The notes under the pieces: model-generated
Seen by the model: only the letters and a program-made list of their open reading frames with translations
The model's database searches: none
Told to the model about the DNA's origin: nothing
Virus record (IMG/VR): IMGVR_UViG_2671181100_000008
Span: 1 to 19,547 of that record
Reading direction: 5' to 3' (one strand)
Length of the DNA stretch: 19,547 bases
Source: a virus
Lineage: Duplodnaviria > Heunggongvirae > Uroviricota > Caudoviricetes
Shown: positions 1 through 18,515 of the stretch, one piece after another
Numbering within the stretch: the stretch's first letter is position 1
How the letters are laid out: each line of letters opens with the position of its first letter
Position numbers and translations under genes: made by a program

Positions 1-411
1 ATGCCTGCCCCCGTCGTCCTGATCCTTGCGGCCGGGCGTGGAGAGCGCTTTCTCGCCTCCGGGGGAAATACCCATAAGTGTATCGGCTGGCGTCAGTCCC
101 CGGAGGTTGCGCCTTATCGCTGGCCATTTGAAGAAAACGGGAGAACTTTCGACCTTGCGATTGAACCGCAGATTACGACTAATGATCTGCGTCTGATGTT
201 GAGGCTGGCTCTTGCCGGCGGAGGAATAACAATTGCCACTCAGGAAACTTTCAGGCCATATATTGAAAGCGGTAAGCTTGTATCGCTGCTTGATGACTTT
301 CTTCCACAATTTCCGGGCTTCTATCTGTATTTCCCACAGCGTCGCAATATTGCACCAAAGCTCCGCGCCCTGATTGACTACGTCAAAGAATGGCGGCAGC
401 AATTGGCTTAA
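1..411 (+). CDS. LysR-family transcriptional regulator, C-terminal fragment (5' end lies outside window)
   Basis: ORF open from base 1 in frame 1, stop TAA 409-411; translation resembles the C-terminal substrate-binding region of LysR-type regulators; GC-rich host-like composition contrasting with the AT-rich DNA that follows. Confidence 0.6.
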   Translation: MPAPVVLILAAGRGERFLASGGNTHKCIGWRQSPEVAPYRWPFEENGRTFDLAIEPQITTNDLRLMLRLALAGGGITIATQETFRPYIESGKLVSLLDDFLPQFPGFYLYFPQRRNIAPKLRALIDYVKEWRQQLA

Positions 412-535
412 ATGTCTGCACCTGCACTGCCTGATGTCAGAACAGTATTTTGATGAATTGCCAAGGTTACAATGGCACAAATACGGCACAGGAGGAAACG
501 TGGTGTATTTAAATATGGGGTAACTCTTTGATTTT

Positions 536-554
536 AATGGTGCGATAATAGGAG
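536..554. repeat. att core-like repeat: imperfect copy (one-base deletion) of the tRNA-Thr 3' end found at 12397-12416
   Basis: aatggtgcgataataggag at 536-554 versus aatggtgccgataataggag at 12397-12416, same orientation; proposed left boundary of the integrative element. Confidence 0.5.
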
Positions 555-613
555 CAAATCATAAAAACCAACCAATTGATTTATATGAATAAAAAAATTA
601 AAACATTATTAGG

Positions 614-633
614 TACCCCCAAAAGTACCCCCA
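614..633. repeat. Tandem TACCCCCA motif pair (possible arm-type recombinase binding sites), left end of element
   Basis: tacccccaaaagtaccccca at 614-633 matches tacccccataagtaccccca at 12265-12284 at 19 of 20 positions, same orientation, each just inside one end of the element. Confidence 0.4.
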
Positions 634-849
634 GATTTTCTTGTTGCCATCTAAATTGTTTAAAAAACATTCTATTGATGTTGATACCACAATTTAAGAA
701 CTGCCTTGAAGCATATCAAGTTAGCTAGACGTCAAAATGGCACTCTGGGAATTTGTGTTTTAGGCCCAACCTTAGTGATGTTTGCCGTACAGCTCCCTTT
801 ATGGTCATCCTATGGTAAAGTTAAGCTCCCTTCGAAAGGAGACCCCCAA

Positions 850-1977
850 ATGACGATAACAGCCTATTCTAGAAAATTTAAGCGTGAACTGGATGCTAAG
901 CAGTTGGAAAACCTTTTCGAACGTAGCAACTCAGATCCTTCTTTAAGTTTTAGAGATTTTGTTAAAGAGGATGTTGAATGCCCGGCATGCAATGTTTCTG
1001 GTGGTTATTACGTTTCGGAAGGAAGATCGCTCAGTAACGGCAAAGTTGTAAAGCAAGCACACTTTGCATTTCGAGACAATCTAGGTAAAGACTCTCACCT
1101 CCCATTTTGTGATTTTTATACTGGAGATGATAAGTTGAACGTTGTTTCAAATGAAGGCCGAATTGATTTTATGCGCTCGGGTTCTGAAGCGACACGCTTA
1201 ATAGGTCTTATGGTCTGCGCGGGAATTCAGGAGAAGATTTTTACGCAAGAAGATATACGTAACATGCGCCAATGGTTCTTAGATTTAAGAGAAAAAGGCA
1301 CTTTTACATTTAATTTAAGCCCTCACATAATTTACCTTGCAAAGGCCTCATTGATTAGATACAAGAGAAACTATGATAATTATGTTGTCGATCTCAGCGC
1401 CACAAACAAAAGTTGGTTCGACATCAATGAGGAAGTATATCAATCCCTTTATTTCAAGTACCCTCAATTCTATCTAAACCGTAATGAGAATCCTGAACTT
1501 TGGAATGTAAGGCTTAAATCAGTAGTCAAAAAAGCAAGAACTATAGTAATTAAAGACTCTGGAACATCAACATTTGACAGATCAATTCTCAACGAAAAAT
1601 ATGAGATAGCTACTCAAATGGCAAGACTGATTCGAGACTACCACCCTCGACTCCGTATGATTATTAGTTACACACCAACATCTATCAAAGCAAACAACCC
1701 ACTCATGGCTTTATCTGCATTATTATTACATGTTTCCGATTGGAATATTCAGGAAAGTTGTAAAAAAATCCAAGCAATTTTAGCAGTTGAGAAAGTTGAC
1801 GATAATTCTGCAGGAAACATTATTGGATTAAACCCATTCATTCACCATAGCGCTTGGATTCTTGTTAAAGCTTTAAACGACTTACATTCTAATTTAGACA
1901 AAGAAATTGATTTTGATAAAGCATTCAACGAAGAAAAAGAGAGGCTCATGAAAATTTACTATCCAAATGGTCAATAA
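850..1977 (+). CDS. Hypothetical protein (375 aa), putative partner of the downstream SIR2-like protein
   Basis: ATG at 850 preceded by AAGGAG (836-841) with 8-nt spacing; stop TAA 1975-1977; the ORF-track start at 706 is a TTG without an RBS. AT-rich. No domain recognisable by eye; one CPAC motif. Confidence 0.7.
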   Translation: MTITAYSRKFKRELDAKQLENLFERSNSDPSLSFRDFVKEDVECPACNVSGGYYVSEGRSLSNGKVVKQAHFAFRDNLGKDSHLPFCDFYTGDDKLNVVSNEGRIDFMRSGSEATRLIGLMVCAGIQEKIFTQEDIRNMRQWFLDLREKGTFTFNLSPHIIYLAKASLIRYKRNYDNYVVDLSATNKSWFDINEEVYQSLYFKYPQFYLNRNENPELWNVRLKSVVKKARTIVIKDSGTSTFDRSILNEKYEIATQMARLIRDYHPRLRMIISYTPTSIKANNPLMALSALLLHVSDWNIQESCKKIQAILAVEKVDDNSAGNIIGLNPFIHHSAWILVKALNDLHSNLDKEIDFDKAFNEEKERLMKIYYPNGQ

Positions 1978-2068
1978 CAAGTAAATTCTTATCTCTACAG
2001 ATAAATACATACTTGAGCTGTGTTCTAACAAATTTTAATGATTACCACTAATATATCTCGGGGGTCAA

Positions 2069-3568
2069 ATGAATATAACGGATTTTCTAAAAGGCTACAG
2101 AAACCATCCAATATTATTTGTTGGAGCAGGTTTCAGCATGAGATACTTATCAATTTCTTATAGCTGGCCGGCACTCTTAGAGAAAATTAGTATTGACCTG
2201 ACAAACTCTAATGAACTATATAAAGATCTTGTCAGAGAAAACAGTAATAAAGATGGTATTATAGACCTTCCAAAAGTGGCAACGCAATTAGAGCAAATAT
2301 TTGATGCAACACTTAAAGCAGATAGGAATGGAAAGTTCAAAAATATCAATGACTTATACTACAGCTCGGAAGATACCTCCTCAAATATTAGCAGATTTAA
2401 AATCTATCTTTCACAGTTAGTGAATATCACAGATTTAAAATTAGGAGTTCAAGATGAAATATCTGAATTAGTAAAAGCCTCCAAAAATATTGCCTCTGTG
2501 ATTACAACAAACTATGATAATTTTATCGAAAGTGCAATTGGTTATAACCCTGTAATTGGGAATGATATACTTTTAAGCAATCCTTATGGTTCTGTTTATA
2601 AAATTCACGGATGCGTTAGCAAACCAGAATCCATAATAATAACTGGTGATGACTATGTTCATTTTGATAAAAAATATGAGTTGATTCGTGCTCAACTCCT
2701 ATCCTTATTTATACATAACCCGATTATATTTATGGGGTATAGAATAGGTGACCCTAATATTAAAAAAGTATTAAAAACAATATTTTCATACATACCACCT
2801 CGTTCTAAAATTGCAGAAAAAATAAAAAACAACTTCCTTCTGATTGAAAGAGAAGAAGGCATTGATAATTTAAACGTTGTCTCTCACGATCTCGAAGTAG
2901 AAGATGCTGGGTTAATTAGCATTAATAAAATCGTTACAGATAACTTCTCAGACATATATAAAGAACTTGCTCAACTGCACTTACCAGTTTCGGTAATGGA
3001 TATACGCAGAGCAGAGAGTGTCTTTGGTAAAATAAAGGAAGGCGGAGACATAAAAGTAAAACTTGTTGGGGATTTGGACACGCTCAGAAATGATGAACTT
3101 GTTCTAGCCGTCGGTTCTGTTAACTCTATAAAAATACACATGCAAACACCTCAGGAGATGATGGAAAACTATTTTGATCTAATTTCAAATCAGGAGTCGC
3201 ATGTTGTCGAGTTGCTTGACAAGTTCACCATCAATAAAAGATCATATTTCCCAGCTTATGCTTTTCATAAATTCAGTCCAGGTGTTAAATGCTTAACATC
3301 ATTAATGAAAAATCAAAAAAGATTAATAGCGTCAAACTATGCTAGGTTACCCAAGAATCAAAGAATAGTAGAACACACCATTGAAGATATTTACGCTAAA
3401 CATTCAGATATTGATAGCAAATTACAAAATATTATTTTCTTCAATGCTCATGATGGACATATATCCTTGGAAGATTTAGAAAAACATGTCCGAGAATTTA
3501 AGGACAAGTCTCATACTGATTATCGCAAACTTTTAGCATTGTATGATTACCTCGCACACAATGTATAA
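2069..3568 (+). CDS. SIR2-like domain protein (499 aa): N-terminal SIR2_2-type putative NADase domain, C-terminal half unassigned
   Basis: Motifs seen in translation: ILFVGAGFS (res 15-23), ITTNYD (145-150, Asn148 codon 2510-2512), KIHGC (His180 codon 2606-2608), FMGYRIGD. Same strand as and 91 bp downstream of the 375-aa gene; AT-rich. Confidence 0.8.
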   Translation: MNITDFLKGYRNHPILFVGAGFSMRYLSISYSWPALLEKISIDLTNSNELYKDLVRENSNKDGIIDLPKVATQLEQIFDATLKADRNGKFKNINDLYYSSEDTSSNISRFKIYLSQLVNITDLKLGVQDEISELVKASKNIASVITTNYDNFIESAIGYNPVIGNDILLSNPYGSVYKIHGCVSKPESIIITGDDYVHFDKKYELIRAQLLSLFIHNPIIFMGYRIGDPNIKKVLKTIFSYIPPRSKIAEKIKNNFLLIEREEGIDNLNVVSHDLEVEDAGLISINKIVTDNFSDIYKELAQLHLPVSVMDIRRAESVFGKIKEGGDIKVKLVGDLDTLRNDELVLAVGSVNSIKIHMQTPQEMMENYFDLISNQESHVVELLDKFTINKRSYFPAYAFHKFSPGVKCLTSLMKNQKRLIASNYARLPKNQRIVEHTIEDIYAKHSDIDSKLQNIIFFNAHDGHISLEDLEKHVREFKDKSHTDYRKLLALYDYLAHNV

Positions 3569-3694
3569 TTATATACATTATCATTGTGATTATAGTTAGC
3601 AAAACTGCAACTGATGGTTTTATACGATTACTAGTTGCAGCCGCAGTTTACAGATCACATCAACTGTAACTTAGAGCGTTTAGAGCCAAAAATT

Positions 3695-3715
3695 CCCGCT
3701 GGTATAGCCAGCGGG
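3695..3715. terminator. GC-rich hairpin between convergent operons, candidate bidirectional terminator
   Basis: cccgctgg (3695-3702) pairs with ccagcggg (3708-3715) around a short loop; an A-run lies before it and gttttg after it on the plus strand, so a T-run follows on either strand. Confidence 0.4.
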
Positions 3716-4011
3716 TGACAGGTTTTGACTGATGCAACCAACGAGCTGTACCTGAAGTTTTCTAAAGGGGGAGAGGTTGTCACTTTCCCCCTGGTTTTCC
3801 CTAGTAAGGCATAACAAACCATAACAGGCTGACACCTGCGCTGCTTCGCATCAGGACTAACAAAAGCTAACCGCCGGGCTCAACAAAGCTCAACGCAAGC
3901 CCTTTACACTTCTGCTCTAGCTGCTGTTCGCAGGCGTCAGGATCCGTTAGGTTGGGTTGACACTTTTCCCAGTTTCTCGCGAAAAAGTGTCAAGTTTGAG
4001 GGCTGGGGGGT

Positions 4012-4509
4012 TTACAGTTTTTCGCCGTCCAGCAGGCAGAGTGACATTAAACCAGTTTTGTTCCAGTCATCCAGCGTATCGGGGTGCATTGTGGCAACGT
4101 AAGCCAGCTCAGAACGAAGAAACCGTAAAGCGCCTGCTGCACGGTCTTTGCCATAGAAGCTGTGGGTTTCTTCATCCGGCCGGAAGAGAATCAGCAATTG
4201 TTCATCGGACTCGTGCTGAACATCAAAACCCAGCTCAGCGGCTGCTGCCTCTATTCGCTGGCCAGCATTAATATCAGCCGGCAGCTCTTTCCCGCCGTCA
4301 TGCCCCCATACCCACGCGGCGGCCTGCGCCCACGTCATTGCATTGTGATGATCACCAGCACCAGCACCAGCAGAATTTTGCTTCGCCTGTGTTGCTTCAA
4401 CATCCACTTTATCGCCTGATAGCACAATCTCACCACGTGCTATCCAGCCGTAAACTGTTTGTCGGCTAACGCCCATATGCCTGGCGTAGGCTGATTTACT
4501 TAACAGCAT
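4012..4509 (-). CDS. HTH DNA-binding protein (165 aa), possibly terminase-small-subunit-like or packaging-redirecting
   Basis: ATG at 4509 with GGAGGG RBS upstream on the minus strand; N-terminus MLLSKSAYARHMGVSRQTVYGWIARGEI is a typical helix-turn-helix; last gene of the minus-strand operon. Function is inference. Confidence 0.55.
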   Translation of the reverse strand: MLLSKSAYARHMGVSRQTVYGWIARGEIVLSGDKVDVEATQAKQNSAGAGAGDHHNAMTWAQAAAWVWGHDGGKELPADINAGQRIEAAAAELGFDVQHESDEQLLILFRPDEETHSFYGKDRAAGALRFLRSELAYVATMHPDTLDDWNKTGLMSLCLLDGEKL

Positions 4510-4543
4510 CGTGTGTTTCCCTCCGGGCAGAAAAAAGCCGCCA

Positions 4544-5338
4544 TCAGGCGGCCTGTTTCCCATCTTCATCATCTGCTTTACCCTGTCGGGAATTAATTTT
4601 TTCCATACCATCAATGTACTCGGACAGATTCGCCAGCCCGGAGACTCGAGGAGCCACATCGCGAGGGTCGTCATTGCTTCCAAATACCAGATTTGCATAC
4701 CATGTGCGAACAGCGATGATTTGCTGCAGGTTGCGGTTAATGGCTTTTACCAGGTTAGAAACAGATTTGATAACGGCTCCGTTATCTGTGGCGATACGGG
4801 CAAAAGTCAGTCGCTCCAGCTGAGAATCTGTTACGCCTGAGCAAATGGCGTTACCTCGTAGCAGGGCGTCACATAAATCAGTCTGATTCCCGGCATACAT
4901 TGCTACCATCAGCTTTTCTTTCGCAGCTCCATCCAGCGAGCGAAATACATTCCGTAGCTCACTATCTCGCATAAATCCGACAACATCACCCTCGGCCAAC
5001 GGAGCAACTGGGGCCAGTTTGGTCTTAAGATAATTGAGAATATTTTCAGCTTGTTCGCTGATCATCGCCGTACTTCTAGTGAAAGCCGTGAGTGTGTCTC
5101 TATTTGCCGCATCTCTGGCCCGGCGGTTTTTTGCTGCTTCGTTTAAATCCGGATCATTGCGGATAACCTCTACGGCATCGGCTTCCGCCTCAGCTAACAT
5201 TGCCACGGCCCGCAGATCACCAAAAATATTCGTCATCCCTTTAAAAAGAATCGCCATCTGCTCATTAGGCGCAACCACTTCAGAAACGTTATCAGTGATA
5301 GCAATGCTTCTTTGCCCAATTTTAATTTCGTAACTCAC
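4544..5338 (-). CDS. Hypothetical satellite/phage protein (264 aa), GTG start
   Basis: GTG at 5338 preceded by GGAGGT; no in-frame ATG upstream before a stop; start overlaps the stop of the upstream small gene (GTGA overlap at 5335-5338). Confidence 0.6.
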   Translation of the reverse strand: MSYEIKIGQRSIAITDNVSEVVAPNEQMAILFKGMTNIFGDLRAVAMLAEAEADAVEVIRNDPDLNEAAKNRRARDAANRDTLTAFTRSTAMISEQAENILNYLKTKLAPVAPLAEGDVVGFMRDSELRNVFRSLDGAAKEKLMVAMYAGNQTDLCDALLRGNAICSGVTDSQLERLTFARIATDNGAVIKSVSNLVKAINRNLQQIIAVRTWYANLVFGSNDDPRDVAPRVSGLANLSEYIDGMEKINSRQGKADDEDGKQAA

Positions 5339-5508
5339 TGGCTTACCTCCATTCTGGATAGCCCAACATCAAATATTTTTCTCGCCACATCATGGATTGA
5401 TGGTGCGATACCAAACCCGGATTTCTGGCGTTCCTGCTCCTGGATGGCTTTTAATGCCGCAACCTGAGCAGCGCTCAGAAGAACGGGTTTCACGTGTTCC
5501 TTTTTCAT
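5335..5508 (-). CDS. Small hypothetical protein (57 aa)
   Basis: ATG at 5508 with G-rich RBS (AAGGGGG); the longer ORF-track start at 5547 is TTG; translationally coupled to the 264-aa gene. Confidence 0.5.
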   Translation of the reverse strand: MKKEHVKPVLLSAAQVAALKAIQEQERQKSGFGIAPSIHDVARKIFDVGLSRMEVSQ

Positions 5509-5639
5509 GCTTCCCCCTTGGTTATCACATGATAAAAAACGCAACAATCACAATAATCATTGCAAGTAATGAAATGATGGTAATGAAATCGAGGGGATGC
5601 ACAACGTGAAATGAATGGATGCGTTTTAAAGAATTTGCC

Positions 5640-5890
5640 CTCAAGGTATACATGGTGTTCATAAAGGCTATAAATTGCTTATAAAACATAATATTAACCT
5701 ATGAACACCAGCCTACATTTTGGGATTTCAGGTCTACACGGTATACATCATTCTGTTTAATAAACGATCAGATGGTTAATGAGAGAATGAACACCATGTA
5801 CACCCTGTGTATACCTGAAAACAAGGTATACATGGTTTATTGCACTGATTTATATATAAATTATTCTCTCGATGTATACCATGTATACCT
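5640..5890. repeat. Iteron-like cluster of a 12-bp motif GGTATACATGGT in both orientations (putative replication origin or operator)
   Basis: Exact copies at 5645-5656 and 5825-5836 (direct), exact inverted copy at 5878-5889, degenerate copies at 5740-5751 and 5793-5804 (inverted), half-site at 5808-5816; AT-rich spacer immediately downstream of the primase gene. Confidence 0.55.
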
Positions 5891-5911
5891 TTCTCCATAT
5901 TTATCTGAACT

Positions 5912-7675
5912 TCATTCTTTATGACCGGCTACAGGATGCGTCTGAGGTAACCAGTCTTCCGCACTCTCTGAAAGTTCAACGTTGGTCACCATGCCACGGG
6001 CTCTCCGTTCCTTACGGTACTCGTGATTAAACTCCCTCATCGCGCTTTCCATCCCCTCTGCGAATTTATTCAGCGTCAGCGGCTTGTCGAAACCGTTGGC
6101 CTCCAGGAATGCCAGGTAAGCGTGATAGAGATAAATTCGCGGATAGTGAGGCGGATTGCGGTTTCCTACCATCATTCCCGCACAATCAGCCAGCCGCTCA
6201 AGATGCGCGCAGAAGGCATAAAGCGGATCCGTTTTCTGCTTCACCTCCAGTGCTTCTTCGCTGTTCCGTTGCTCCAGCAGCAGCGCCCGCGCTTTTTCCG
6301 GGTTCGCAAAGTTCGCCAGCAGCCGACGAACCACCACCGGAATTTCAGCGGATATCTTTTCTGCCAGGTCGGGATCTTTATCCTCCTCGCTGACGCGCCG
6401 GTTAAACTGGAAAATTACGCGTCGCCGGGAAACGCCGCCGGCACGTTCGGTGAAAATCATCGGCGTGTTGTTCGTGGCCACAACCACCGCCCGCAAAACG
6501 GCGGTGTACTGGTGCTCGTGTTTCGGGTCGATCTCCACGGCATCCCCGCCGGTTATCGCTTTTATCCCGGTACCCTCTCCTGAATATTTGGGCTGATCAG
6601 GAAGCGTTATCATGCTTTTCCCGACGAACTGCGCCCGCCCGCGCGCGCTGTCGAGCGCCGCCATGTTCCCGCTGGCGGTGTTATGCGCACCGGCCAGCAT
6701 CGTAGCGATATGGGTAAAGACACTTTTCCCGCTACCGCCATCACCGGTTATCTCGAGGAACAGCTGCCAGTCGTACCGGTTCGCCAGCACCATAAAGAGC
6801 GCTGCAGCGATGCGCTGCATCTTAATTGCGTCTCTATCTGATGCGTAACTTAGCCATTTATGGAAGTTCGGCGCGTGGTCGCGGAGGTTTTCGCCCGGTA
6901 CCGCTGGCGTGTAGGTCACGCCGTTATGATTGGTTAGCCAGTTGTCCTGGCTGTGTTCGGAGAAAATGCCGGTTTCCATATCGTAGACACCGTTTGCAAA
7001 GGGGATCAGGCTCCGCCGCGGCTCCCCCATCACCGGGATAACGATTTTCAGGGCGTCGATAACGTTGTTGATCGCGCGCTTGCTGAAGTTGGTTTTGTTC
7101 TCGTTGTAGATAGCCACCATTTCGCGGCTCAGCTCGAGCATAGACGTTTTCTCCCAAATGCCGGCGCGGTAGACGTACACGCCCTCGCTGTTTTCGTTGA
7201 TTGCAATGCCGGTGTAACGCGCGGCCAGTATGAGCGCCTTTTCGTTATCAGCCAGGTCGCGGAGGTTTACATCCGTCAGCGGTTTGCCGATCACCATACT
7301 TTTGCCGGCTTCCGCATCGGCTTTGAGGCGCGGCAGCTGCGGCGTCCAGTCCTCCAGAAGCTGATAACCTTCAGAGTAGAATTGCGCGCGCTCCACGCCG
7401 GCCACCGCCAGCTTTGTCGCGAGAATGGTTATCTGCCGTTCGGTCAGATGCCCGCCGCGGCAAACCCGGGCATAGAGCCGGCCATCATCAACAATGCGGA
7501 TATTCTCCAGCTCCGCCAGCTGCTTTTTATCCAGCACAACCGGCGGCACCGTGTCGCCAATCGGGTTCATTTCCTGCCATGCTTTGGCGAACGTCCAGGC
7601 ATCGGCGCCGGCAAAGATGATTGACTCCTCCATGAGATCCGCCGGCTGCTTTTTAAGGTTTGGTGCATTCTTCAT
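5912..7675 (-). CDS. Primase/helicase-like replication protein (P4 alpha / D5-type C-terminal NTPase family), 587 aa
   Basis: Walker A-like GDGGSGKS in translation; size and context typical of satellite/PICI pri-rep genes; ATG at 7675 overlaps the stop of the upstream gene (ATGA). Confidence 0.8.
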   Translation of the reverse strand: MKNAPNLKKQPADLMEESIIFAGADAWTFAKAWQEMNPIGDTVPPVVLDKKQLAELENIRIVDDGRLYARVCRGGHLTERQITILATKLAVAGVERAQFYSEGYQLLEDWTPQLPRLKADAEAGKSMVIGKPLTDVNLRDLADNEKALILAARYTGIAINENSEGVYVYRAGIWEKTSMLELSREMVAIYNENKTNFSKRAINNVIDALKIVIPVMGEPRRSLIPFANGVYDMETGIFSEHSQDNWLTNHNGVTYTPAVPGENLRDHAPNFHKWLSYASDRDAIKMQRIAAALFMVLANRYDWQLFLEITGDGGSGKSVFTHIATMLAGAHNTASGNMAALDSARGRAQFVGKSMITLPDQPKYSGEGTGIKAITGGDAVEIDPKHEHQYTAVLRAVVVATNNTPMIFTERAGGVSRRRVIFQFNRRVSEEDKDPDLAEKISAEIPVVVRRLLANFANPEKARALLLEQRNSEEALEVKQKTDPLYAFCAHLERLADCAGMMVGNRNPPHYPRIYLYHAYLAFLEANGFDKPLTLNKFAEGMESAMREFNHEYRKERRARGMVTNVELSESAEDWLPQTHPVAGHKE

Positions 7676-7986
7676 TTTCTGTTCCCTCGCTCCCTGATGA
7701 TTTCCCGCATGACACGAATTCGCTCGATGCCCTGTACCCGCATAATCCGATCGATATCTTTTTCGCCGGCGACCGGCGCGGAAGAAACAAATTCAAATTC
7801 CCGCACCAGTCTTTCTGGCGTGCAAAAACACGGTGAGCTGTACCCCTCGCGGCAATATGTCACTCTGTCGAATCGGTAACTTTCGATAATTACGATGCTG
7901 CCCCGGCTGTCCTTCCATTTATCGCCCGGCCTGATTTCAGGGTGAGCGCGGCCACCAGCAGCTAAGCCGGAAATTTTAATCGTCAT
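7672..7986 (-). CDS. Hypothetical protein (104 aa), replication operon
   Basis: ATG at 7986 with GAGGT RBS; stop overlaps the primase start. Confidence 0.55.
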   Translation of the reverse strand: MTIKISGLAAGGRAHPEIRPGDKWKDSRGSIVIIESYRFDRVTYCREGYSSPCFCTPERLVREFEFVSSAPVAGEKDIDRIMRVQGIERIRVMREIIRERGNRK

Positions 7987-7996
7987 ATTTTTTACC

Positions 7997-8200
7997 TCAC
8001 GCCGCTGGCGGGATTACCTGATAACCAATCTTCTTCAGAAAGCGCGCGGCACTCTCCACCGTGAAAAGGATCTCGTCGTCCATAAGGGGGCGCATCGACT
8101 GCAACCCGTTCGACGTGTCCACCAGATAGCGGCCGCCGGCCGGAAAACTGAATACAGTTTTGCCATCGCTACAGCGCACCAGATTATAAATAGCGGTCAT
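7997..8200 (-). CDS. Hypothetical protein (67 aa)
   Basis: ATG at 8200 with GGGAGG RBS; ATGA overlap with the upstream gene stop. Confidence 0.5.
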   Translation of the reverse strand: MTAIYNLVRCSDGKTVFSFPAGGRYLVDTSNGLQSMRPLMDDEILFTVESAARFLKKIGYQVIPPAA

Positions 8201-8412
8201 GGTCTGACCTCCCTGACTTTCACCAGATATTCCGATGCCTGACTGACCAGGCTGTGAACCGCCGCGACACGAAAGCTTTCCATTTCATCATCCGGCGCCA
8301 GGGTGTTTATCCACATATCGAGAACGGCAAGCGCCTGACGGCTGTATTCAAGCGCCTGGCCTGCGCTGGTCGTCAGCATGGCAATGGATTCGTTTTGAGT
8401 TGGCTTTGTCAT
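8197..8412 (-). CDS. Hypothetical protein (71 aa)
   Basis: ATG at 8412; ATGA overlap with the stop of the recombinase-like gene. Confidence 0.5.
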   Translation of the reverse strand: MTKPTQNESIAMLTTSAGQALEYSRQALAVLDMWINTLAPDDEMESFRVAAVHSLVSQASEYLVKVREVRP

Positions 8413-9284
8413 GCATTCACCTCCATAGCGAGGCGTGTCTGGATAGCCGCGGCCTTGCTCCCCAGCTGGAGATAAGTCCGGGTGATTGCCGGGTTACTGT
8501 GTCCGAGCATTTCAGAGGCGACCAGCAAGCCCTGTTCGCCGCCGGCGGACATGAGATTAAAGGCGGCAATTTTGCGGCTGGAATAGGCGCTCAGGCGCAG
8601 ACGCGTGTTTACTACGCGGGTAAACCACACCATGACGTTGTGCAGTTTCTTCCAGATCGTCTGACGGCTAACGCTACCTTCCAGAGACTGGCAACGGTTA
8701 CTTTCAATCTGGCTGCGGGAAAATACCAGGTCGTCACCGATAAGATTGCGCTCCATGCGTTCCCGCAGTCGTTTGATGATGCCCGGCGGCAGCTGTTTGG
8801 TGTCGTGCTTCACTTCAGCCTTTGCCACCAGCTCAAACACAATCGCCTGTTCTTCTTCCGTCATGCCGGCGGCCAGCTCGTCGCAGCTCACGCTATCCCA
8901 GTGCATGTACCCAATGTGATCGCCAGCAAGCCGGGCAGCGTCCTTGCGCTGCTGGCGAACAATCTCGATCCCCTTCCGGGTCGCTCTGGCTTCCGCTGCT
9001 TTGGTCTGCTTCGCCACGATGATTGTTGCAATGCCGGTTTCCCAGTTGATGCAGGAGTAACGGAAGTTGCACACGTCGCTGGTACGCCAGCCGGTTACGG
9101 TCGCAATATCCCACCAGAGTAAAACCCACTCCGGCTGGGTCTGCTGGATGCGTTCGCGCAGTTTGCGCTGCTCTTCCCGTTCGTAAACGGGGGTCATGGT
9201 GCGGGTGCCTTTCGTGGTAGTGGCTTTTACCACGTTGCCGCGCAGCTCGCGGGCTTTAGCTGTCAGGGTCTGGAGGTTAAACAT
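8409..9284 (-). CDS. Tyrosine recombinase-like protein (291 aa) embedded in the replication operon
   Basis: Internal ATG at 9284 with GGGAGGT RBS (the 517-aa ORF-track extension has no support); C-terminal LGHSNPAITRTYLQ matches the tyrosine-recombinase box II pattern; candidate box I Arg in TGWRTSDV. Confidence 0.65.
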   Translation of the reverse strand: MFNLQTLTAKARELRGNVVKATTTKGTRTMTPVYEREEQRKLRERIQQTQPEWVLLWWDIATVTGWRTSDVCNFRYSCINWETGIATIIVAKQTKAAEARATRKGIEIVRQQRKDAARLAGDHIGYMHWDSVSCDELAAGMTEEEQAIVFELVAKAEVKHDTKQLPPGIIKRLRERMERNLIGDDLVFSRSQIESNRCQSLEGSVSRQTIWKKLHNVMVWFTRVVNTRLRLSAYSSRKIAAFNLMSAGGEQGLLVASEMLGHSNPAITRTYLQLGSKAAAIQTRLAMEVNA

Positions 9285-9522
9285 GGCTACCTCCCAGTTT
9301 CGCAACATCCAGTTCAAACGCGCCGCTACTGTATTGATAAAGCGAACATTCAGAGCGAATTTTGGCGGCAAAGATAAGATCCCAGCGGGAATAAAACTCG
9401 CGGGCTTCTTGCTCACTGTCGGCAACGATGCGGATAACAACGGGAGTACAGGTCCGGCCTTTCGGCGTACCGAGGAAAAGCCAGGTGAATTTGGGCAGTT
9501 TTTGGGTTGGGGTAGTAGCCAT
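9277..9522 (-). CDS. Hypothetical protein (81 aa), first gene of the replication operon
   Basis: ATG at 9522 with GGAGG RBS at 8-nt spacing; 3' end overlaps the recombinase-like start by 8 nt. Confidence 0.5.
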   Translation of the reverse strand: MATTPTQKLPKFTWLFLGTPKGRTCTPVVIRIVADSEQEAREFYSRWDLIFAAKIRSECSLYQYSSGAFELDVAKLGGSHV

Positions 9523-9724
9523 GTGGCAGCCTCCATACAGTGGTCTAGATAACCACCACCGGAAACGCCAATTTCACTGGTGGTGGACTGAGCAGGGTTG
9601 GCGTAACCGGACTGTATGGACTCCGGCGCGGATTTCTCCGCCCCCACCCAGCCCACCATAATTTTGCTAGCAGAGCGGTTTTGAACCACAACGCGTGAAA
9701 ATAGGTGAGACGGATCAACGGCAC

Positions 9725-9746
9725 AAAAAAAGACGCTTGGCGCGTC
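9725..9746 (-). terminator. Rho-independent terminator on the minus strand, downstream of alpA
   Basis: Minus strand reads GACGC-GCCAA-GCGTC followed by seven T (plus-strand A-run 9725-9731, stem 9732-9736 and 9742-9746). Confidence 0.5.
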
Positions 9747-9993
9747 ATGTGTCGCCATACAGTCATTCAGGACGCCAATCCTGACACCAGATTTTGCTGG
9801 TGCTTTTAAAGCATACCCTTCAGTTGAATAACAAGGCAAGGAGTTTTTAGGGTGAGCGAAGCCCTGCCCCAGACGGGCATAATTGTTCTTCATGGCATTA
9901 ACCTTTTTGAATTTTTTAGTGAGCTGTCGCGACGAACTTATTCTGCGAGATCTGAAGTGCAAACTCTCGCAAATTATCTCAGCTCACGGAATC

Positions 9994-10191
9994 TCAGTTC
10001 GTTTGGCTGCGTGACGATTCAATGCGCTCACTAATCCATTCATCAATTTCGCTTTCAATGAAAGCAATTGCTCGAGAACCAATTTTTATGGATGAGGGGA
10101 AACGTTGCTCAGCCATGAGTCGATAGATCCAAGCCTTGCTATAGCCGGTTCTACGCTGAACTTCAGGTAAGCGGATAAGGGATTGGGACAT
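9994..10191 (-). CDS. alpA: AlpA-family phage transcriptional regulator (65 aa)
   Basis: Translation LIRLPEVQRRTGYSKAWIYRLMAEQRFPSSIKIGSRAIAFIESEIDEWI is the characteristic AlpA HTH; ATG at 10191 with GAGAGGT RBS. Confidence 0.85.
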   Translation of the reverse strand: MSQSLIRLPEVQRRTGYSKAWIYRLMAEQRFPSSIKIGSRAIAFIESEIDEWISERIESSRSQTN

Positions 10192-10358
10192 ATATACCTC
10201 TCGAAGTCTAATGTGGTCTACGAGGTATATTTCAGCAAAAACAAGAGGGGAGTTGTGGAAGTCACAGTAAATCAGTTGGAAGCAGCTCTTCCACGGAAAC
10301 AGAAGTACGGCCAGAAGTTTTAGAACCTGTAGATCGTCTTTTTGGAAATCCTTACGGG

Positions 10359-10949
10359 CTATTTGGAAGCGTACGTGTTCAGAGCTTCATCAATTAGCAT
10401 AGTCAATGCCTTATCAGTCACATCGATGCCATCGCCATGCTCCAATATGATTCTTGAGGCACTTCTGGCAACTTCGGATTTGTTCAATTTCTTACCGCGA
10501 ACATATTTTCCACCCGCTTTTTCAAGCGCAATCGCCATACCAGCGATCAATTTCAAAGCAGTGTCTTTGCCAGCGAACTCGCCCCATACCCCAGGAACAT
10601 GTTCATTAGCATGAGCTGCATTTTCTTCCTCACAGCCATACCATACATCTTCAGCAGATAGCTCTTTGATTGCCCAGGACCAAATATCTTCAGCGTAAAA
10701 CTCAGCGTTGACAAAATTACCGCCGATATCAGTCCAAACAGTTTTCGGGCTTAGCTCTTTGTTAAGAGCCGCTTGAATGATACGAAAATAGCTACAAGCC
10801 ATGTTGTATCTTTCGGGGTCATAACTTTTATCAAATTCTCTTAAGCATGCAAAACGATACACACCGGCCATAGCCATTGCAGCCTGTTCAGCAGTGACCA
10901 CACGTTGTCGGCGAAGATGATGGGGCATGTTGAGGATGTTTTCTCGCAT
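10359..10949 (-). CDS. Hypothetical protein (196 aa) between int and alpA
   Basis: ATG at 10949 with AGGAAG RBS; no domain recognised by eye. Confidence 0.6.
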   Translation of the reverse strand: MRENILNMPHHLRRQRVVTAEQAAMAMAGVYRFACLREFDKSYDPERYNMACSYFRIIQAALNKELSPKTVWTDIGGNFVNAEFYAEDIWSWAIKELSAEDVWYGCEEENAAHANEHVPGVWGEFAGKDTALKLIAGMAIALEKAGGKYVRGKKLNKSEVARSASRIILEHGDGIDVTDKALTMLIDEALNTYASK

Positions 10950-11017
10950 AAAAGCTTCCTGCTAACGATAGTCTACAGAAGTCTACTACTGTCAATTAGC
11001 ACTGTCTATACATACAG

Positions 11018-12232
11018 TTAAGCGCTTTTCCCAAACGTTCCGTGCACTACATTTTCGCCGTTTTCCAACGCCTCCATATAGTCGGCATACCACTGGAGCA
11101 TTTCGCGGCGGCCATCCAGATACTGGGCGTGGTTGTACGTTCCTCGTATAGAGTTTTTGTCGACGTGTGCCAGTTGCGTTTCAATCCACGCGGTGTTGTA
11201 GCCCTGTTCGTGCAGGATGGTACTCATGGTGTGCCGGAAACCGTGCCCGGTGACTTTTCCGTTATAGCCAATCCGCTTGAAGACTTGGTTTATGCTGGCT
11301 TCACTCATTGTTTTCCGCGGATCGTTACGGCCTGGGAACACAAGCGGGTAATTGCCTGTTAGCTCTTGGATCTGACCAATAAGCGTAAGAGCTTGCCTGG
11401 ACAACGGCACCACATGAGGGCGACGCATTTTCATGCGTGAGGCGGGTATTTCCCAGACCGCCTTACTGATATTGATTTCATCCCAAAATGCCCCACGGAG
11501 TTCGCCGGGACGCAATCCGGTGATAATCAGCAGACGAGCAGCCAAAACTACTAACTCGCTTCCTGAATATCCTGACAACGCATTGAAGAAATCAGGCAAT
11601 TCTTTAGGTGTGAGGAAAGGAAAATGATTGGACTCGTGCCCTTGCATCGCGCTGGTGAGATCCGGGGCGGGGTTATACTCAGCTCGACCGGTAACTATTG
11701 CGTAACGGAAAACTTCCCCACAGCGCTGCCTAACTTTTCTTGCCTTTTCGGTAGCGCCGCGCCCCTCAATGCGCCGCAGCACATTCAACAGTTCAAGCGG
11801 TTTGATTTCGGCTATTGGTTTTTTGCCAATGTATGGGAACACATCTTTATTGAAGGCTTCGAGGATGTCTGAAGCATAACCAGCAGACCATTTTTTTAGT
11901 TTGCTGCTGTGCCATTCAAGGGCAATATCTTTGAAGGTGTTGTTTAGCTGAATTTCACGGGCAATCTTCTCCTCCCGTTTCGCTTCCATAGGATCGATAC
12001 CCCCAGCGATACCCCTTTTCGCTTCTTCACGTTTTGCCCGAGCATCGGCCAATGTGACTTCAGGATAGACACCCAGAGCTAACAGCTTCTCTTTGCCGGC
12101 TACACGATATTTGAGCCGCCAGTATTTGCCGCCATTAGGTTTGATAAGGAGATACAGACCGCCACCATCAGCCAGCTTGTAAGGCTTATCTTTAGGTTTA
12201 GCGGCCTCCACCTGCCGGGCGTTAAGTTTCAC
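11018..12232 (-). CDS. int: Site-specific tyrosine integrase, P4 type (404 aa), GTG start
   Basis: N-terminal arm-binding-like region (KLNARQVEAAKPKDKPYKLADGGGLYLLIKPNGGKYWRLKYR) and C-terminal catalytic region (HGFRHT, NHAQYLD); GTG at 12232 preceded by AAGGAGG and an in-frame stop; adjacent to the tRNA-derived att sequence. Confidence 0.9.
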   Translation of the reverse strand: MKLNARQVEAAKPKDKPYKLADGGGLYLLIKPNGGKYWRLKYRVAGKEKLLALGVYPEVTLADARAKREEAKRGIAGGIDPMEAKREEKIAREIQLNNTFKDIALEWHSSKLKKWSAGYASDILEAFNKDVFPYIGKKPIAEIKPLELLNVLRRIEGRGATEKARKVRQRCGEVFRYAIVTGRAEYNPAPDLTSAMQGHESNHFPFLTPKELPDFFNALSGYSGSELVVLAARLLIITGLRPGELRGAFWDEINISKAVWEIPASRMKMRRPHVVPLSRQALTLIGQIQELTGNYPLVFPGRNDPRKTMSEASINQVFKRIGYNGKVTGHGFRHTMSTILHEQGYNTAWIETQLAHVDKNSIRGTYNHAQYLDGRREMLQWYADYMEALENGENVVHGTFGKSA

Positions 12233-12296
12233 TTGGGGGTACCTCCTTTAGACCGAACAGCATATACCCCCATAAGTACCCCCAAACGACCGTAGA

Positions 12297-12381
12297 TTTC
12301 AGGGAACTGTAGTAGACGTAGAAATACCAAAAGGGGCTGTAAAGCGCAGATTATAAGGGGTTTCAGTGAACTTTAGTAGAC
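12297..12381. repeat. Two 21-bp direct repeats (12297-12317 and 12361-12381) between int and the att core
   Basis: tttcagggaactgtagtagac versus tttcagtgaactttagtagac, 19 of 21 identical; the embedded 9-mer gtagtagac recurs inverted at 10981-10989. Confidence 0.45.
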
Positions 12382-12398
12382 TTGGGGAGACGTTAGAA

Positions 12399-12444
12399 TG
12401 GTGCCGATAATAGGAGTCGAACCTACGACCTTCGCATTACGAAT
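12399..12444 (-). tRNA. Partial tRNA-Thr (anticodon CGU, thrW-like): 3' 46 nt only, from anticodon loop to CCA; serves as att site
   Basis: Minus strand reads ATTCGTAATGCGAAGGTCGTAGGTTCGACTCCTATTATCGGCACCA with a T-arm (GGTTCGACTCC), acceptor 3' strand, discriminator and CCA; the expected 5' half is absent from 12445 onward. Identity with thrW is from memory. Confidence 0.7.
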
Positions 12445-13191
12445 TATAAGAATCCGCTTCTAATTCAAAGTATTACCCCATCAACACTGTGCTCACACGT
12501 CCCACCACATCAAAACATGTAAAGCCTTGCAAGCCATTGTGAGGCCTTATGTGTCTCAGTTTTGTCCCACCTTGTATTATGACTTGCATAGCCAATGAAG
12601 ATAAACGTGACGACAAACAGCGCAGCAGTCTTCTTTTCTTTCACACTTTCCCCAATCAGCATACATACTTTCTACCATAACTGTAGTGAATGTCTGTTAT
12701 GAGCGAGCAAAAGAGATTCAATTACCGGGGAATTACTCCGACATAAGCTCTCCCAGAAACACCGGAACAGCGATTCGCATATTCTCTTCTATACTTTCAG
12801 TCTGACCGGCTGGAGATTTCATAGCAAGAAAATGGATGCGCCAAGACCTATGCGGGAAAGAGGCTGAGGAAATAATTGCCGATAGCACTGTGCCCGACGA
12901 AAAGTTAATCTGGCACGCAATGACGCGCGTCCTTGGGGCATCAGGAATCAGAGAGCCAACTTAACAACCCATTACATATTATTTAACCGGACTGTTACAT
13001 GTACAAAGTTCAATGATTAGTGATTCTGTGACGCCACATACAACCTAAGCCCCTGATATAAAACCAGTCTATGCAACACCTAAAAATCATATATGATAGG
13101 GTGATAAGTCAACGCGCAGTATAAAAATTAAGCTAAAAAATGCTTTCAGCATAGTGAATCTATTTCACACTACATAATTAAGGATGAAAAA

Positions 13192-14037
13192 ATGACTGCA
13201 CCAGTAATTAGTTTTATCAATATGAAAGGTGGGGTTGGTAAAACAACTTTATGCGTTGGGATTGCTGAGTTTTTAGCCAACCATATGGGGCGCAAGGTTC
13301 TAGTTATCGATATTGATCCTCAATTTAATGCCACTCAGTCCTTAATGGGGCATTATGATCGAGTAGAAGAATATATGACTGCCCTTCGCCCTAATAATCA
13401 AACCATTCGAAAGATTTTTGAGCTTCCAAATTCATTAATGGAAGATGAAAAGAAAGTGACACCAGAACAGGTCATTACTAAAGTTTCAGACAATCTTGAT
13501 ATTATCTTAGGTGATATAAACATTATCTTTGATACTAACCAAGAGGGTATTAGAATAAAAATGTTGCGTAAATTCATCACCGAAAATGACTTAAAAGAAA
13601 GTTACGACTATATCTTTATCGATAGCCCCCCAACAATCTCATTATTTACAGATACCGCACTCCTTGCTTCTGATTATTATCTTACTCCGGTTAAAATTGA
13701 TCACTACTCGGTGCTTGGAGCAAGCAGTTTAAATAGCGTTATAAGAAATATGCGCACACATCATGAGAAAGAAATCAAGCAAGTCGGTTACATTTATACA
13801 AACACTGATGCTGAAATGACCAATAAAACAAGGGAAATTAAAGAACAATTCGAAAACCATACTCAATTTACAAATTTTTATTTCTTTGAAAATCAATTAA
13901 CCTACGTGCGTGATTTAATGGTAGGTTATCAAGGAAATATTCCTTCTTGTTATTCAAAGTCACGCCAAGATATAGAAAAGATCTGTAACGAATTTATTAA
14001 CAGAGTGGCTCACTTGGAAGGTAACACAAATGAATAA
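13192..14037 (+). CDS. ParA/MinD-like P-loop ATPase (281 aa)
   Basis: Deviant Walker A KGGVGKTT near the N-terminus (FINMKGGVGKTTL); AAGGA RBS 7 nt before the ATG; very AT-rich. Confidence 0.8.
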   Translation: MTAPVISFINMKGGVGKTTLCVGIAEFLANHMGRKVLVIDIDPQFNATQSLMGHYDRVEEYMTALRPNNQTIRKIFELPNSLMEDEKKVTPEQVITKVSDNLDIILGDINIIFDTNQEGIRIKMLRKFITENDLKESYDYIFIDSPPTISLFTDTALLASDYYLTPVKIDHYSVLGASSLNSVIRNMRTHHEKEIKQVGYIYTNTDAEMTNKTREIKEQFENHTQFTNFYFFENQLTYVRDLMVGYQGNIPSCYSKSRQDIEKICNEFINRVAHLEGNTNE

Positions 14038-14428
14038 ACAATTAATTAAAGCGCTCAATAAAGCTAATAATATGCCCATGACCAAAGAAAACTTCTTAGG
14101 CTTGGTAATTATGTTGATTCTTTCAAAAGAGGTTTTTAGATCAAATTTTGATGTTAGTAAATTTATTAACAAAACCTTCAAAATATCTTTTTTGAATTAT
14201 GCTGTACGGTCAAGAACTTTGATGTGCGCTAAAATTTGCAGACATATTAATGAATTAAGTGAGAATGACATAAAGATGGCTTATACGCATTTCTTAAACA
14301 ACATTAACACATTAGACATTATTTTTAATGATGCAAATAAAACAAGCCAAAAATCCACATCTAAAAGCAAGCATGCTATAAGGAATTTAAATATTTGGAT
14401 TAATGCAAATAAAAAGGAAGAAGAATAA
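14030..14428 (+). CDS. Hypothetical protein (132 aa), coupled to the ParA-like gene
   Basis: ATG at 14030 overlaps the ParA-like 3' end by 8 nt; GGAAGG RBS; AT-rich, Asn/Lys-rich. Confidence 0.6.
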   Translation: MNKQLIKALNKANNMPMTKENFLGLVIMLILSKEVFRSNFDVSKFINKTFKISFLNYAVRSRTLMCAKICRHINELSENDIKMAYTHFLNNINTLDIIFNDANKTSQKSTSKSKHAIRNLNIWINANKKEEE

Positions 14429-15093
14429 TGCTCACGCAGGATCCCTTCAACATTGGAAGAGATGTAAATTATTTTAGAGCGGAGGTGCAAAAGCACCTCA
14501 GAACCACTGATGAAATAAACAAATCAGTATCAATATTTAGGCAAATAAGTCTTTGTAATACAATTTTAAGTCACAATCCTAATCTAAATCACTCTTCTTA
14601 TATAAAAGGTTTTATATATGATACCTTAAACTCCTTAATTGCCATTATAAAAAAAAGAGAACGGTATCTCCAACTGAACTTCCGCTCAATGGTGGAGCAT
14701 GTGGCCAGAATAAGCCTCAATAAGAACTACAATGGTGGGGATTTTGACCAAACTGTACGTCGTAGAGACTTTGACTTCTTAAAAGCCCAACAAGTCGATG
14801 AAGGCTGGTCTTATTTACATAATGTCTATATCAACGCCTGTTATTATGTTCACTCCTCCCCCCAAGCGAACCTAAATGTTACATCAACATTTATATCACT
14901 TATGGAGGGAGATTGTAATTCAACACAGCATAAAATGGTGAAAAAACTTCATGAGGTAGTATCGGCGCTGATGAGAATCATTATAAAGTATTATCATCAG
15001 CATATCTCAAACATTTTCTTTAGAAACAAAAAGGATTTAGAGAAAATAATGGGAAAAAGCCTTTATTCATATTATACCAGCTTAGACAATTAA
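14428..15093 (+). CDS. Hypothetical protein (221 aa), third gene of the ParA-like operon
   Basis: ATG at 14428 overlaps the upstream stop (TAATG); AAGGAAG RBS; no assignable domain. Confidence 0.6.
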   Translation: MLTQDPFNIGRDVNYFRAEVQKHLRTTDEINKSVSIFRQISLCNTILSHNPNLNHSSYIKGFIYDTLNSLIAIIKKRERYLQLNFRSMVEHVARISLNKNYNGGDFDQTVRRRDFDFLKAQQVDEGWSYLHNVYINACYYVHSSPQANLNVTSTFISLMEGDCNSTQHKMVKKLHEVVSALMRIIIKYYHQHISNIFFRNKKDLEKIMGKSLYSYYTSLDN

Positions 15094-15130
15094 TTCTCTC
15101 ATATTCATTGCGTAGAGCATAAATATCTAT

Positions 15131-15627
15131 CTAACCACCTAAAATGCCAGAAAATCTAGTTGTATACCGGTGCGAAAATATCTCGCGTTTCATCTGCCAC
15201 TGCTGCTGAATGCCCTGCCCAGCGAAACAGAGTGTTTCCTTCCCGTCTTTTGCATTGAGGTGCTCCAGCACGCTCATTAACTTTTCGCTCCCAGGACCCA
15301 GCGCGTTATCGTCGAATAGGTTAGGGCATGCTCTGACTGAAGAAGTCCCCCAGCATTACCCCGGCTTTCTGATATCGGTGTCCGTCTTTCCATATTGCAT
15401 CCAGACTCCCCGTTGCTACTGCAATGATATCCCGACTGTCCTGTGTCGGGATGAGCAGCTTCACCGACGCGCTGTTACAGTAGTACGACTCGTTCAACGC
15501 AAAGGGTATCGTGTAAAACCGATGATGACACTGCCGGCAATCAGCACTGACGTCAGCAAACGTGAGAAAGAACAGATAAGCCGAACGATTTAGGAAATGT
15601 TTGAAGAGACTGATATGTGGATGGTTT
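15131..15627 (-). pseudogene. umuC: umuC-like (Y-family translesion polymerase) C-terminal remnant, 5'-truncated and frameshifted
   Basis: Minus-strand translation gives ...HRYQKAGVMLGDFFSQ, then after a frame change ...NLFDDNA...LNAKDGKETLCFAGQGIQQQWQMKR...RYTTR, resembling the UmuC/MucB C-terminus as I recall it; no start codon, and the N-terminal three quarters are missing. Confidence 0.55.
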
Positions 15628-16023
15628 CAGTTTAAACGCCTTGAACCGTCATATTACCTAAGTACAATCCGCTGTGACTGGCAATCATTCAATACTTGCA
15701 CTATCAAAAGTGCATCAGCCAACCGCAGCACGTCTTGCATACGACCTGTCTGCGGTTTCAATCACCTCTCACCACCAGTCCCATCAATAATAATTAAACA
15801 GCGCCTAAACAAAATAAATAACAACAAGTCAACAACCTCGACAGGATGCCGATGGGATGATGAAGAGATAAGAAAGAATAACTAGTAAAGCCCTAAAACG
15901 TCAGCGTTCAGACGCGTTTTTTACTTAACCGGTAACAAATACGTTGTATCATAGCAACATAAAATGATTGTTCTAAATCAGATTAACTCCTCACTTTTGT
16001 ACAATGTCGCTTACAGGTATACC

Positions 16024-17913: not shown

Positions 17914-17935
17914 TGCAATTAATAAAATGATTATA

Positions 17936-17959
17936 GCGGCCTTACATTAGTAAGGCCGC
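17936..17959. terminator. Perfect 9-bp hairpin 23 nt after the GmrSD-like stop (putative terminator)
   Basis: gcggcctta (17936-17944), loop cattag, taaggccgc (17951-17959); no clear T-run on the plus strand, so efficiency is uncertain. Confidence 0.4.
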
Positions 17960-18277
17960 TACTCACTATTAAATCCTTTAATTTGCAACAAGAACAGCAG
18001 TGTCAGCCCTAGGTTTCGGACTTTGTACCGCTTATCTTGTCTTCAAAAATCAGCTCGCATCCTGCACAGTTCAGCGCATTACGAATCTGTAGCACCAATC
18101 TTAACTATCTGTTTTAGCAAGCATTAACCGCATTCACTAAGCTATAGTTGATGGCACAAACAGAAAGTTGATGCATGATGTTGTCATGTGTATGTCACAA
18201 ATGCGGCACAACGATCTTCAAACATGTAGCCACACATCCACAGAAGAGCACAAAGCCTTGCAATCCAGTGCAACGCT

Positions 18278-18511
18278 TTGTGTACCATAGTTTTTCCTTA
18301 TCAACTACCGCAAGTATCGATCGATGGAGGCTTGGATGTTAAATTTCATGACTTTGATCACTTGGTGCATCACGAAACTATCGAAGTGCAACTCGCTCAT
18401 GCCAACGGCGGATCTGTGCGTGGGATTTACAACCATGCTCAGTATCTAGATAAGCGCAGAGAAATGATGCAGTGGTGGGCTGATTACATCGATGGTCGTG
18501 CAGGAGTGTAA
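18278..18511 (+). pseudogene. Integrase C-terminal remnant (P4-type), 5'-truncated
   Basis: Translation ...IEVQLAHANGGSVRGIYNHAQYLDKRREMMQWWADYIDG parallels the C-terminus of the intact integrase at 11018-12232 (...IETQLAHVDKNSIRGTYNHAQYLDGRREMLQWYADYMEA); only about 45-55 residues are recognisable. Confidence 0.6.
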
Positions 18512-18515
18512 GCCA

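Follow-up and report, generated by a model that had tools for sequence, protein, structure and literature searches.

A SIR2-family protein of 499 amino acids is encoded on the plus strand at positions 2069..3568 of a 19,547-nucleotide stretch of DNA, positions 1 to 19,547 of IMG/VR virus record IMGVR_UViG_2671181100_000008 (here called the window, meaning the whole stretch that was analyzed). By its sequence the protein is a member of a widespread, uncharacterized single-gene candidate defense family, PADLOC PDC-S25. Its SIR2 domain is judged, from alignments and a structure model, to end at about residue 303-306 and is followed by a module of about 190 residues with no relative detected outside the family. 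The preferred reading, given a probability of about 45%, is a self-contained abortive-infection NAD+-hydrolyzing enzyme (NADase) whose C-terminal module would gate the SIR2 domain, the helical part of that module being the likely trigger-binding element.

Gene and family membership

The open reading frame (ORF) 2069..3568 was taken from the ORF list of the window and is a real one; no other ORF of at least 60 codons overlaps the interval 2880-3568 on either strand. The protein matches the PADLOC PDC-S25 model PDLC04968 over residues 2-497 of 499 (E=6.9e-140) and PHROG 2695 (E=6e-119), and is annotated in Escherichia coli NDM2 as 'SIR2 family protein' (WP_040088523.1). Among 5.8 billion proteins searched, 1,644 relatives were retrieved; almost all listed ones have about 495-520 residues and cover 99-100% of the protein, and conservation extends along the entire C-terminal half. 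Residue invariance, here and below, refers to an alignment of 60 homologues, in which 24 positions past residue 245 are invariant. Conservation in more than 1,600 homologues shows that the C-terminal half is not chance sequence.

The family is spread over many bacterial phyla, with at least 338 loci in species-representative genomes. PADLOC lists PDC-S25 as a single-gene candidate, that is, a computational candidate family. The literature searched contained no characterization of PDC-S25 and reported no function, structure or trigger for it; the family was found in one listing, a PADLOC call in an O157:H7 strain, and neither of the two protein accessions was found there. In Rousset et al. (2022) uncharacterized SIR2-domain cargo of satellite hotspots comes up in general terms only.

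Extent of the SIR2 domain

Residues 1-306 (2069..2986, plus strand, as for all features of this gene) are assigned to an immune-type SIR2 domain (PF13289) on the basis of Pfam, alignments with ThsA and DSR2, Foldseek and AlphaFold2. The Pfam SIR2_2 match (E=3e-22; 79.6 bits against a cut-off of 24.5) is limited to residues 143-244, so that by motifs alone the remainder of the protein seems unassigned. The glycine-rich motif FVGAGFS at residues 17-23 (2117..2137), with F17, G19, G21 and S23 invariant, aligns with FVGAGVS of DSR2 and is presumably the dinucleotide-binding loop, as judged from general knowledge of SIR2 Rossmann folds. Asn148 in TTNYD (2510..2512) corresponds in the alignment with DSR2 (VITTNYDN) to Asn133, which we take to be catalytic. 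His180 in KIHG (2606..2608) corresponds to DSR2 His171 in KVHG, the residue mutated in the H171A structures, whose PDB entry names read 'DSR2 (H171A)'. Both Asn148 and His180 are invariant. The motif FMGYRIGD, placed near residue 225 by a preliminary description of this DNA made from the sequence alone, is indeed present at residues 221-228, with F221, G223, Y224 and D228 invariant.

The preliminary description also let the SIR2 domain end at about residue 225, a boundary that lies some 80 residues ahead of the one found here. By profile, ThsA has the closest SIR2 domain (E=2e-11), which aligns through the domain end: a single-sequence alignment pairs residues 103-276 of the 6lhx chain with residues 139-303 of the query, and the family profile pairs residues 102-280 of 6lhx and 105-283 of 8bto with residues 137-306. 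The SIR2 domain of ThsA reportedly ends near residue 283, where its SLOG domain starts. In the full-length AlphaFold2 model (mean predicted local distance difference test score, pLDDT, 81.6; predicted template modeling score, pTM, 0.59) the alpha/beta fold continues with strands at residues 256-261, 271-277 and 281-290 and a helix at residues 293-301, all at pLDDT 83-92. The top Foldseek matches of the model in the PDB are ThsA, KomC, DSR2 and SIR2/HerA, and lone SIR2 chains of 264-285 residues (KomC and DSR2 SIR2 fragments) align over 279-340 model columns. On the ThsA alignments, the model and the Foldseek chain spans together, residues 271-306 (2880-2986) are assigned to SIR2, and the domain end is placed by sequence and model at about residue 303-306, not at about 225.

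The part of the protein that is not SIR2 is thus residues ~307-499 (2987-3565), about 190 residues. An unassigned C-terminal part does exist, as had been proposed for the interval 2880-3568, but not at the proposed length of 230-270 residues, the first 35 or so residues of the interval being SIR2. A single extended SIR2 fold, the outcome that would have spoken against a separate domain, is found only for residues 271-306 and not for residues 307-499. The domain-boundary annotation of the protein is corrected by this result.

Structure and conservation of the C-terminal module

The end of the module, residues 359-499 (3143..3565), is an all-alpha domain that is family-specific and for which no relative was detected. 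When modeled by AlphaFold2 without the SIR2 domain it was all-helical, with pLDDT 91-98 per 10-residue block and a pTM of 0.70; the proposal of a separate non-SIR2 module is upheld by a domain that folds alone in the model at pLDDT above 90. This is the fastest-evolving part of the protein, with a mean identity of 40% against 60% for the SIR2 domain. Variation is highest in the middle helices, residues 401-480 (3269..3508), where the mean column entropy is 2.35 bits compared with 0.8-1.5 elsewhere. Conserved residues lie in the first helices (E363, Y368, F369, F399) and in the last helix (Y485, D493), and these helices probably dock the domain. The pattern of 40% identity with an entropy peak at residues 401-480 matches the expectation for a recognition surface. 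Judged by the alignment, the variable helices are the best candidate for a cue-binding surface, and a sensor role of residues 359-499 is plausible. The proportion of nonsynonymous differences (pN) from homologues of 86% and 74% identity indicates purifying selection in all regions; synonymous sites are saturated, so that region-wise ratios of nonsynonymous to synonymous substitution (dN/dS) against the same two homologues gave no test of positive selection.

Between the two domains lies a conserved segment, residues 307-358 (2987..3142), with the consensus LPVSxMDIR...GGxIKV...N...AxGS; in the query it reads LPVSVMDIRR...GGDIKVKLVGDLDTLRNDELVLAVGS.... Its mean all-against-all identity is 61%, against 60% for the SIR2 domain, and D311, I322, G325, G326, V330, N341 and G349 are invariant. 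In both AlphaFold2 monomer runs the pLDDT of this segment was below 50. The input alignment was shallow (60 sequences), and the low value may be a technical failure of that alignment; in terms of the model it would also be expected of a segment that becomes ordered only in an oligomer. Most likely the segment links the C-terminus with the catalytic domain or forms an oligomer interface, and it is the best candidate in the protein for an element of either kind.

A distant prophage subfamily of 25-30% identity has the same architecture and includes ORF30 of BK5-T, BC1912 of phBC6A51, Javan227 and a homologue in mycobacteriophage J1. For BK5-T, IPP23 and SVep1, similarity at the BLAST level passes into the 307-358 segment and ends at residue 342-369. 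The helical domain of the distant prophage homologues can be aligned only by profile, with matches at residues 316-530 of the BK5-T protein (E=8e-5) and 409-531 of the phBC6A51 protein (E=9e-4). Since BLAST similarity spans the 307-358 segment and then stops, this segment travels with SIR2, and the helical domain is the diverging end.

Relatives of the C-terminal module

A profile of residues 304-499 was searched against 1.84 billion representative proteins and gave 181 matches. Among those listed, all matches of about 500-540 residues carry the module at about residues 300-500; N-terminal SIR2_2 was found in all eight of these that were scanned and in five shorter, N-terminally truncated matches. 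Pfam scans of C-terminal pieces gave scattered chance matches only, and scans of 19 family members singly gave nothing consistent in the module. The family profile matched nothing in the PDB outside the SIR2 domain, and no nucleic-acid-binding fold was detected in the module. As far as these comparisons reach, this is the C-terminal module of a SIR2 effector without a detectable relative; SIR2 effectors with a fused module are as such already known.

Dozens of catalogue proteins of 100-145 residues start exactly at the conserved Met310 or Met364/365. They are read as gene calls cut at contig ends, from the one example checked, L015; starts of this kind could mislead counts of 'stand-alone' C-terminal domains. 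In L015 (3-716; JGI metagenome 3300037046), a member of the family, the helical domain is followed by an additional domain of the GreA/GreB C-terminal type (Pfam E=6e-10). Its ORF is open to the contig edge, the N-terminus is absent, and it is a single metagenomic observation; the additional domain may hint at a connection with RNA polymerase.

Two further proteins combine the helical domain with other N-termini. P0208 (136-1434 of L016, an ENA metagenome contig of 1,522 bp) has an AlbA_2 (Schlafen-type) N-terminus joined to a diverged helical domain; the change from one to the other falls at 'LVGDL', which the SIR2 family also has at residues 332-336. Residues 1-272 of P0208 are 63% identical to a Bacteroides family of 390-residue proteins whose C-terminus is unrelated, and for this reason P0208 looks recombinant or chimeric. 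As a singleton on a short contig, and apparently a recombinant or an assembly chimera, it was rejected as proof of a shared module. P0234 (237 residues) has a repeat-rich N-terminus, tail-fiber-like by eye and without a Pfam match, fused to the final ~90 residues of the helical domain; it may have been left by a deletion in a prophage in which the SIR2 gene adjoins the late genes.

Gene neighborhood of the homologues

The neighborhood was examined in 80 loci from 80 species-representative genomes, with ORFs within 3 kb of the SIR2 gene clustered by similarity. No neighbor family occurs in more than seven loci. The recurrent families are phage integrase and HsdR (7/80 loci each), HsdS (6/80), resolvase (5/80), HsdM (4/80), and Dcm methylase, Vsr and relaxase (3/80 each). 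In four loci (L052, L072, L075 and L083, at about 1,200-9,700 of each) the SIR2 gene has the complete set of three type I restriction-modification genes around it, hsdM and hsdS lying predominantly upstream and hsdR downstream. The apparent order in these four is hsdM - hsdS - SIR2 - hsdR, and they come from unrelated genomes, a Pseudomonas, a Sulfuricurvum, a Muribaculaceae and a Bacteroidales. Prophage homologues occupy classic moron positions: one lies 3' of the antiterminator gene Q, that of BK5-T between lysin and integrase with its own annotated putative promoter and terminator sites, and that of SVep1 between cI and integrase. A Staphylococcus aureus homologue adjoins rlmH. The PDC-S25 family has a single-gene organization with no obligatory neighbor, and the SIR2 protein keeps the company expected of a defense gene.

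Proposed mechanism and alternative explanations

There being no partner gene and the protein being alone, the same polypeptide must both sense and act; and if the SIR2 protein works alone, only its non-catalytic part, residues 307-499, is left to gate it. Residues 1-306, once switched on, would be expected to hydrolyze NAD+ and starve the infected cell. Residues 307-499 would be a family-specific regulatory module keeping the NADase off until infection, with the 307-358 segment providing the coupling to the catalytic domain or an oligomer interface. The helices at residues 401-480 would bind the infection cue, probably a phage protein, which by analogy with DSR2 is the likeliest cue (PMC10973363). 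Binding of the cue would then release autoinhibition or drive assembly, as in DSR2 and ThsA. That the protein is an NADase, acts against phages, is autoinhibited and senses through residues 359-499 is in each case inferred.

Several points weigh against this gated, self-contained NADase. AlphaFold2 could not place residues 307-358, and at a full-length pTM of 0.59 the model does not give the geometry of module and active site. The helical domain has a net charge of about zero across the family and no motif, so that neither indicates a class of ligand. Between the closest pair of homologues (86% identity) pN is 0.07 at residues 401-480 and 0.09 in the SIR2 domain. The module was not found on other types of effector, unlike many promiscuous sensor domains, and a module private to one family would suit a structural or oligomerization element as well as a sensor. 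The literature on the family amounts to the PADLOC listing mentioned above, and its NADase and antiphage roles are predictions.

Some of these same points favor a different function of the module, as an oligomerization or filament scaffold or an autoinhibitory element, with the cue sensed elsewhere (by the SIR2 domain, through a metabolite or through host shut-off). The 307-358 segment, conserved like the catalytic core and left unmodeled in the monomer, behaves as expected of an interface formed only on assembly; the module is private to the family; the related SIR2 effectors ThsA, KomC, FAM118B and Avs5 are described, in PDB entry titles and abstracts, as acting as filaments; and in the closest pair the variable helices have diverged no further than the SIR2 domain. 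In a pure scaffold, however, one would not look for the fastest evolution of the whole protein, and without a partner gene some part of the polypeptide must detect infection. A scaffold or autoinhibitory role is the main rival reading, less likely than not.

In the second alternative the enzyme would be anchored by its helical domain to a host machine or nucleic acid, for instance the transcription apparatus, and SIR2 would act locally, for instance by ADP-ribosylation of a target, with no bulk depletion of NAD+. The family member with a GreA/GreB C-terminal domain and the metagenomic protein that joins AlbA_2 to the helical domain would fit such a tether, but both are single observations on short metagenomic contigs and the second seems recombinant or a chimera. 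The near-zero net charge of the helical domain and the lack of a detected nucleic-acid-binding fold also speak against a tether, which is considered quite unlikely.

The third alternative makes the locus a two-gene system: the 375-residue product of the upstream gene (850-1977, plus strand; a longer ORF with a TTG start opens at 706) would act as sensor or antitoxin, and the SIR2 C-terminus would do no more than bind it. Both genes lie on the same strand, are separated by a gap of 91 bp in which a pattern scan found no terminator-like site, and are cargo at the end of an island. PADLOC, Pfam and NCBIfam gave no assignment for the 375-residue protein; its only matches are PHROG 12525 (E=4e-88) and, weakly, DUF7516, and it has homologues of 31-34% identity in SSU5-like phages of Salmonella and Klebsiella. 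A tblastn search with it found no match in the 80 SIR2 loci, its gene is absent beside SIR2 homologues of 86%, 74%, 59%, 58% and 48% identity, and its homologue in phage SSU5 has no SIR2 neighbor. The partnership suggested in the preliminary description does not hold up against these data, and a two-gene system with the 375-residue protein is largely refuted. The upstream gene is probably an independent cargo gene and should not be annotated as part of the SIR2 system.

The last alternative, a sirtuin with a housekeeping or regulatory task (a deacylase, for example) that binds its substrate through the C-terminal domain, is very improbable. The catalytic Asn/His pair is common to deacylating sirtuins and the immune function of the family is deduced from sequence and context, but the protein matches PF13289 and SIR2 domains of the ThsA/DSR2 type rather than classical sirtuins, it occurs in a scattered way that follows mobile elements (prophages, islands and type I restriction-modification operons), and only 15 of 5,426 complete E. 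coli genomes match the 6-kb locus over at least 80% of its length at one place.

A more specific form of the gated-NADase reading can also be stated, tentatively and as something that is more probably wrong than right. Residues 307-499 would be an undescribed kind of module for sensing infection, smaller than any other known on a SIR2 effector that works alone; the new alpha fold of residues 359-499 would bind a conserved phage protein through its variable helices; and residues 307-358 would become ordered only in the triggered oligomer, opening the SIR2 active site. In a bolder version, hinted at by the one GreA/GreB-bearing homologue, the module would dock the enzyme on the transcription machinery.

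Other features of the window

The window is E. coli chromosome adjoining paoD and is 100% identical to strain NDM2. The SIR2 gene and the 375-residue gene are cargo at one end of an integrase/primase island, which occupies 73-411 and 4012-12232 of the window as an integrative island beside a truncated LysR gene next to paoD. The island encodes an integrase (11018-12232), a second tyrosine recombinase (8409-9284) and a primase (5912-7675), all on the minus strand, and carries Icd-like and Ash-like genes; no tRNA genes were found in the window. The 15 complete E. coli genomes counted above were obtained with a 6-kb query holding the SIR2 locus. Only 16 complete E. coli genomes contain the island backbone at an identity of at least 99%, with the same cargo wherever it is fully covered.

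A terminator-like hairpin with a T-run lies 3' of the SIR2 gene at 3766..3792 (plus strand); it was located by pattern scan as a consensus match only. The promoter scan gave 15 sites where 13 were expected. A second defense gene of the window, a type IV restriction gene about 12 kb from the SIR2 gene, encodes a DUF262 protein of 649 residues (15964-17913, plus strand) that matches the PADLOC model for type IV methyl-directed restriction enzymes over its full length with 1,439 bits. Positions 13192-15093 (plus strand) hold a ParA-family gene and, after it, two small genes that overlap each other (14030-14428 and 14428-15093); the ParA protein matches the PADLOC candidate PDC-M28B weakly (E=2e-6) and over 40 residues only.

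Comparison with known SIR2 systems

Bacterial immunity repeatedly employs SIR2 NADases as effectors, and these have human relatives in FAM118. In each solved case the interest lies in the non-catalytic module that holds the enzyme off and senses infection, and the solved effectors are all gated by such a module, fused or bound (PDB entries; PMC10973363). The present family is compact (about 500 residues), partner-free, and found on prophages, satellites and restriction-modification operons. Working out its module would add a new minimal sensor-effector design and another phage feature monitored by bacteria.

The identities of AbiH, SIR2-HerA, ThsA and DSR2 were each considered for the protein and rejected. 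AbiH, a lactococcal Abi protein, is sirtuin-like (PMC13064643); the AbiH family model gave no match, and the Pfam scan at E up to 1 gave SIR2_2 and a chance ABC2 match only. The SIR2 folds of KomC (Kongming) and of SIR2-HerA superpose best on the N-terminal domain of the query, with target-normalized TM-scores of 0.45-0.66. Both are bare SIR2 proteins regulated by separate partners, whereas the query has a fused module and no partner; there is no HerA in the window and no conserved neighbor in the 80 loci, as seen by similarity clustering without a HerA-specific scan. ThsA of type I Thoeris (SIR2-SLOG) is of similar length (about 480 residues) and likewise has a C-terminal domain gating SIR2, but a C-terminal SLOG or Macro ligand-binding domain of the ThsA type is not present in the query, and no candidate for ThsB was seen in the window or among the recurrent neighbors of the 80 loci, which were clustered by similarity with no TIR-specific scan.

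DSR2 (defense-associated sirtuin 2) of Bacillus subtilis resembles the query in being a single polypeptide with an N-terminal SIR2 NADase and an aligned Asn/His pair. It is larger, at about 1,000 residues against 499, and has a middle domain and an alpha-solenoid C-terminal domain. The NCBIfam model for DSR2 (NF041819) scores only 18.5 bits on the query, against a cut-off of 1,400, and over the SIR2 part alone; no fold match of the query C-terminus to the DSR2 chains was found. DSR2 acts alone, and its C-terminal part binds a phage protein that turns the enzyme on (PMC10973363). It is the known system closest to the query in logic, sensing and acting within one polypeptide, the C-terminal part of the query being much smaller and unrelated.

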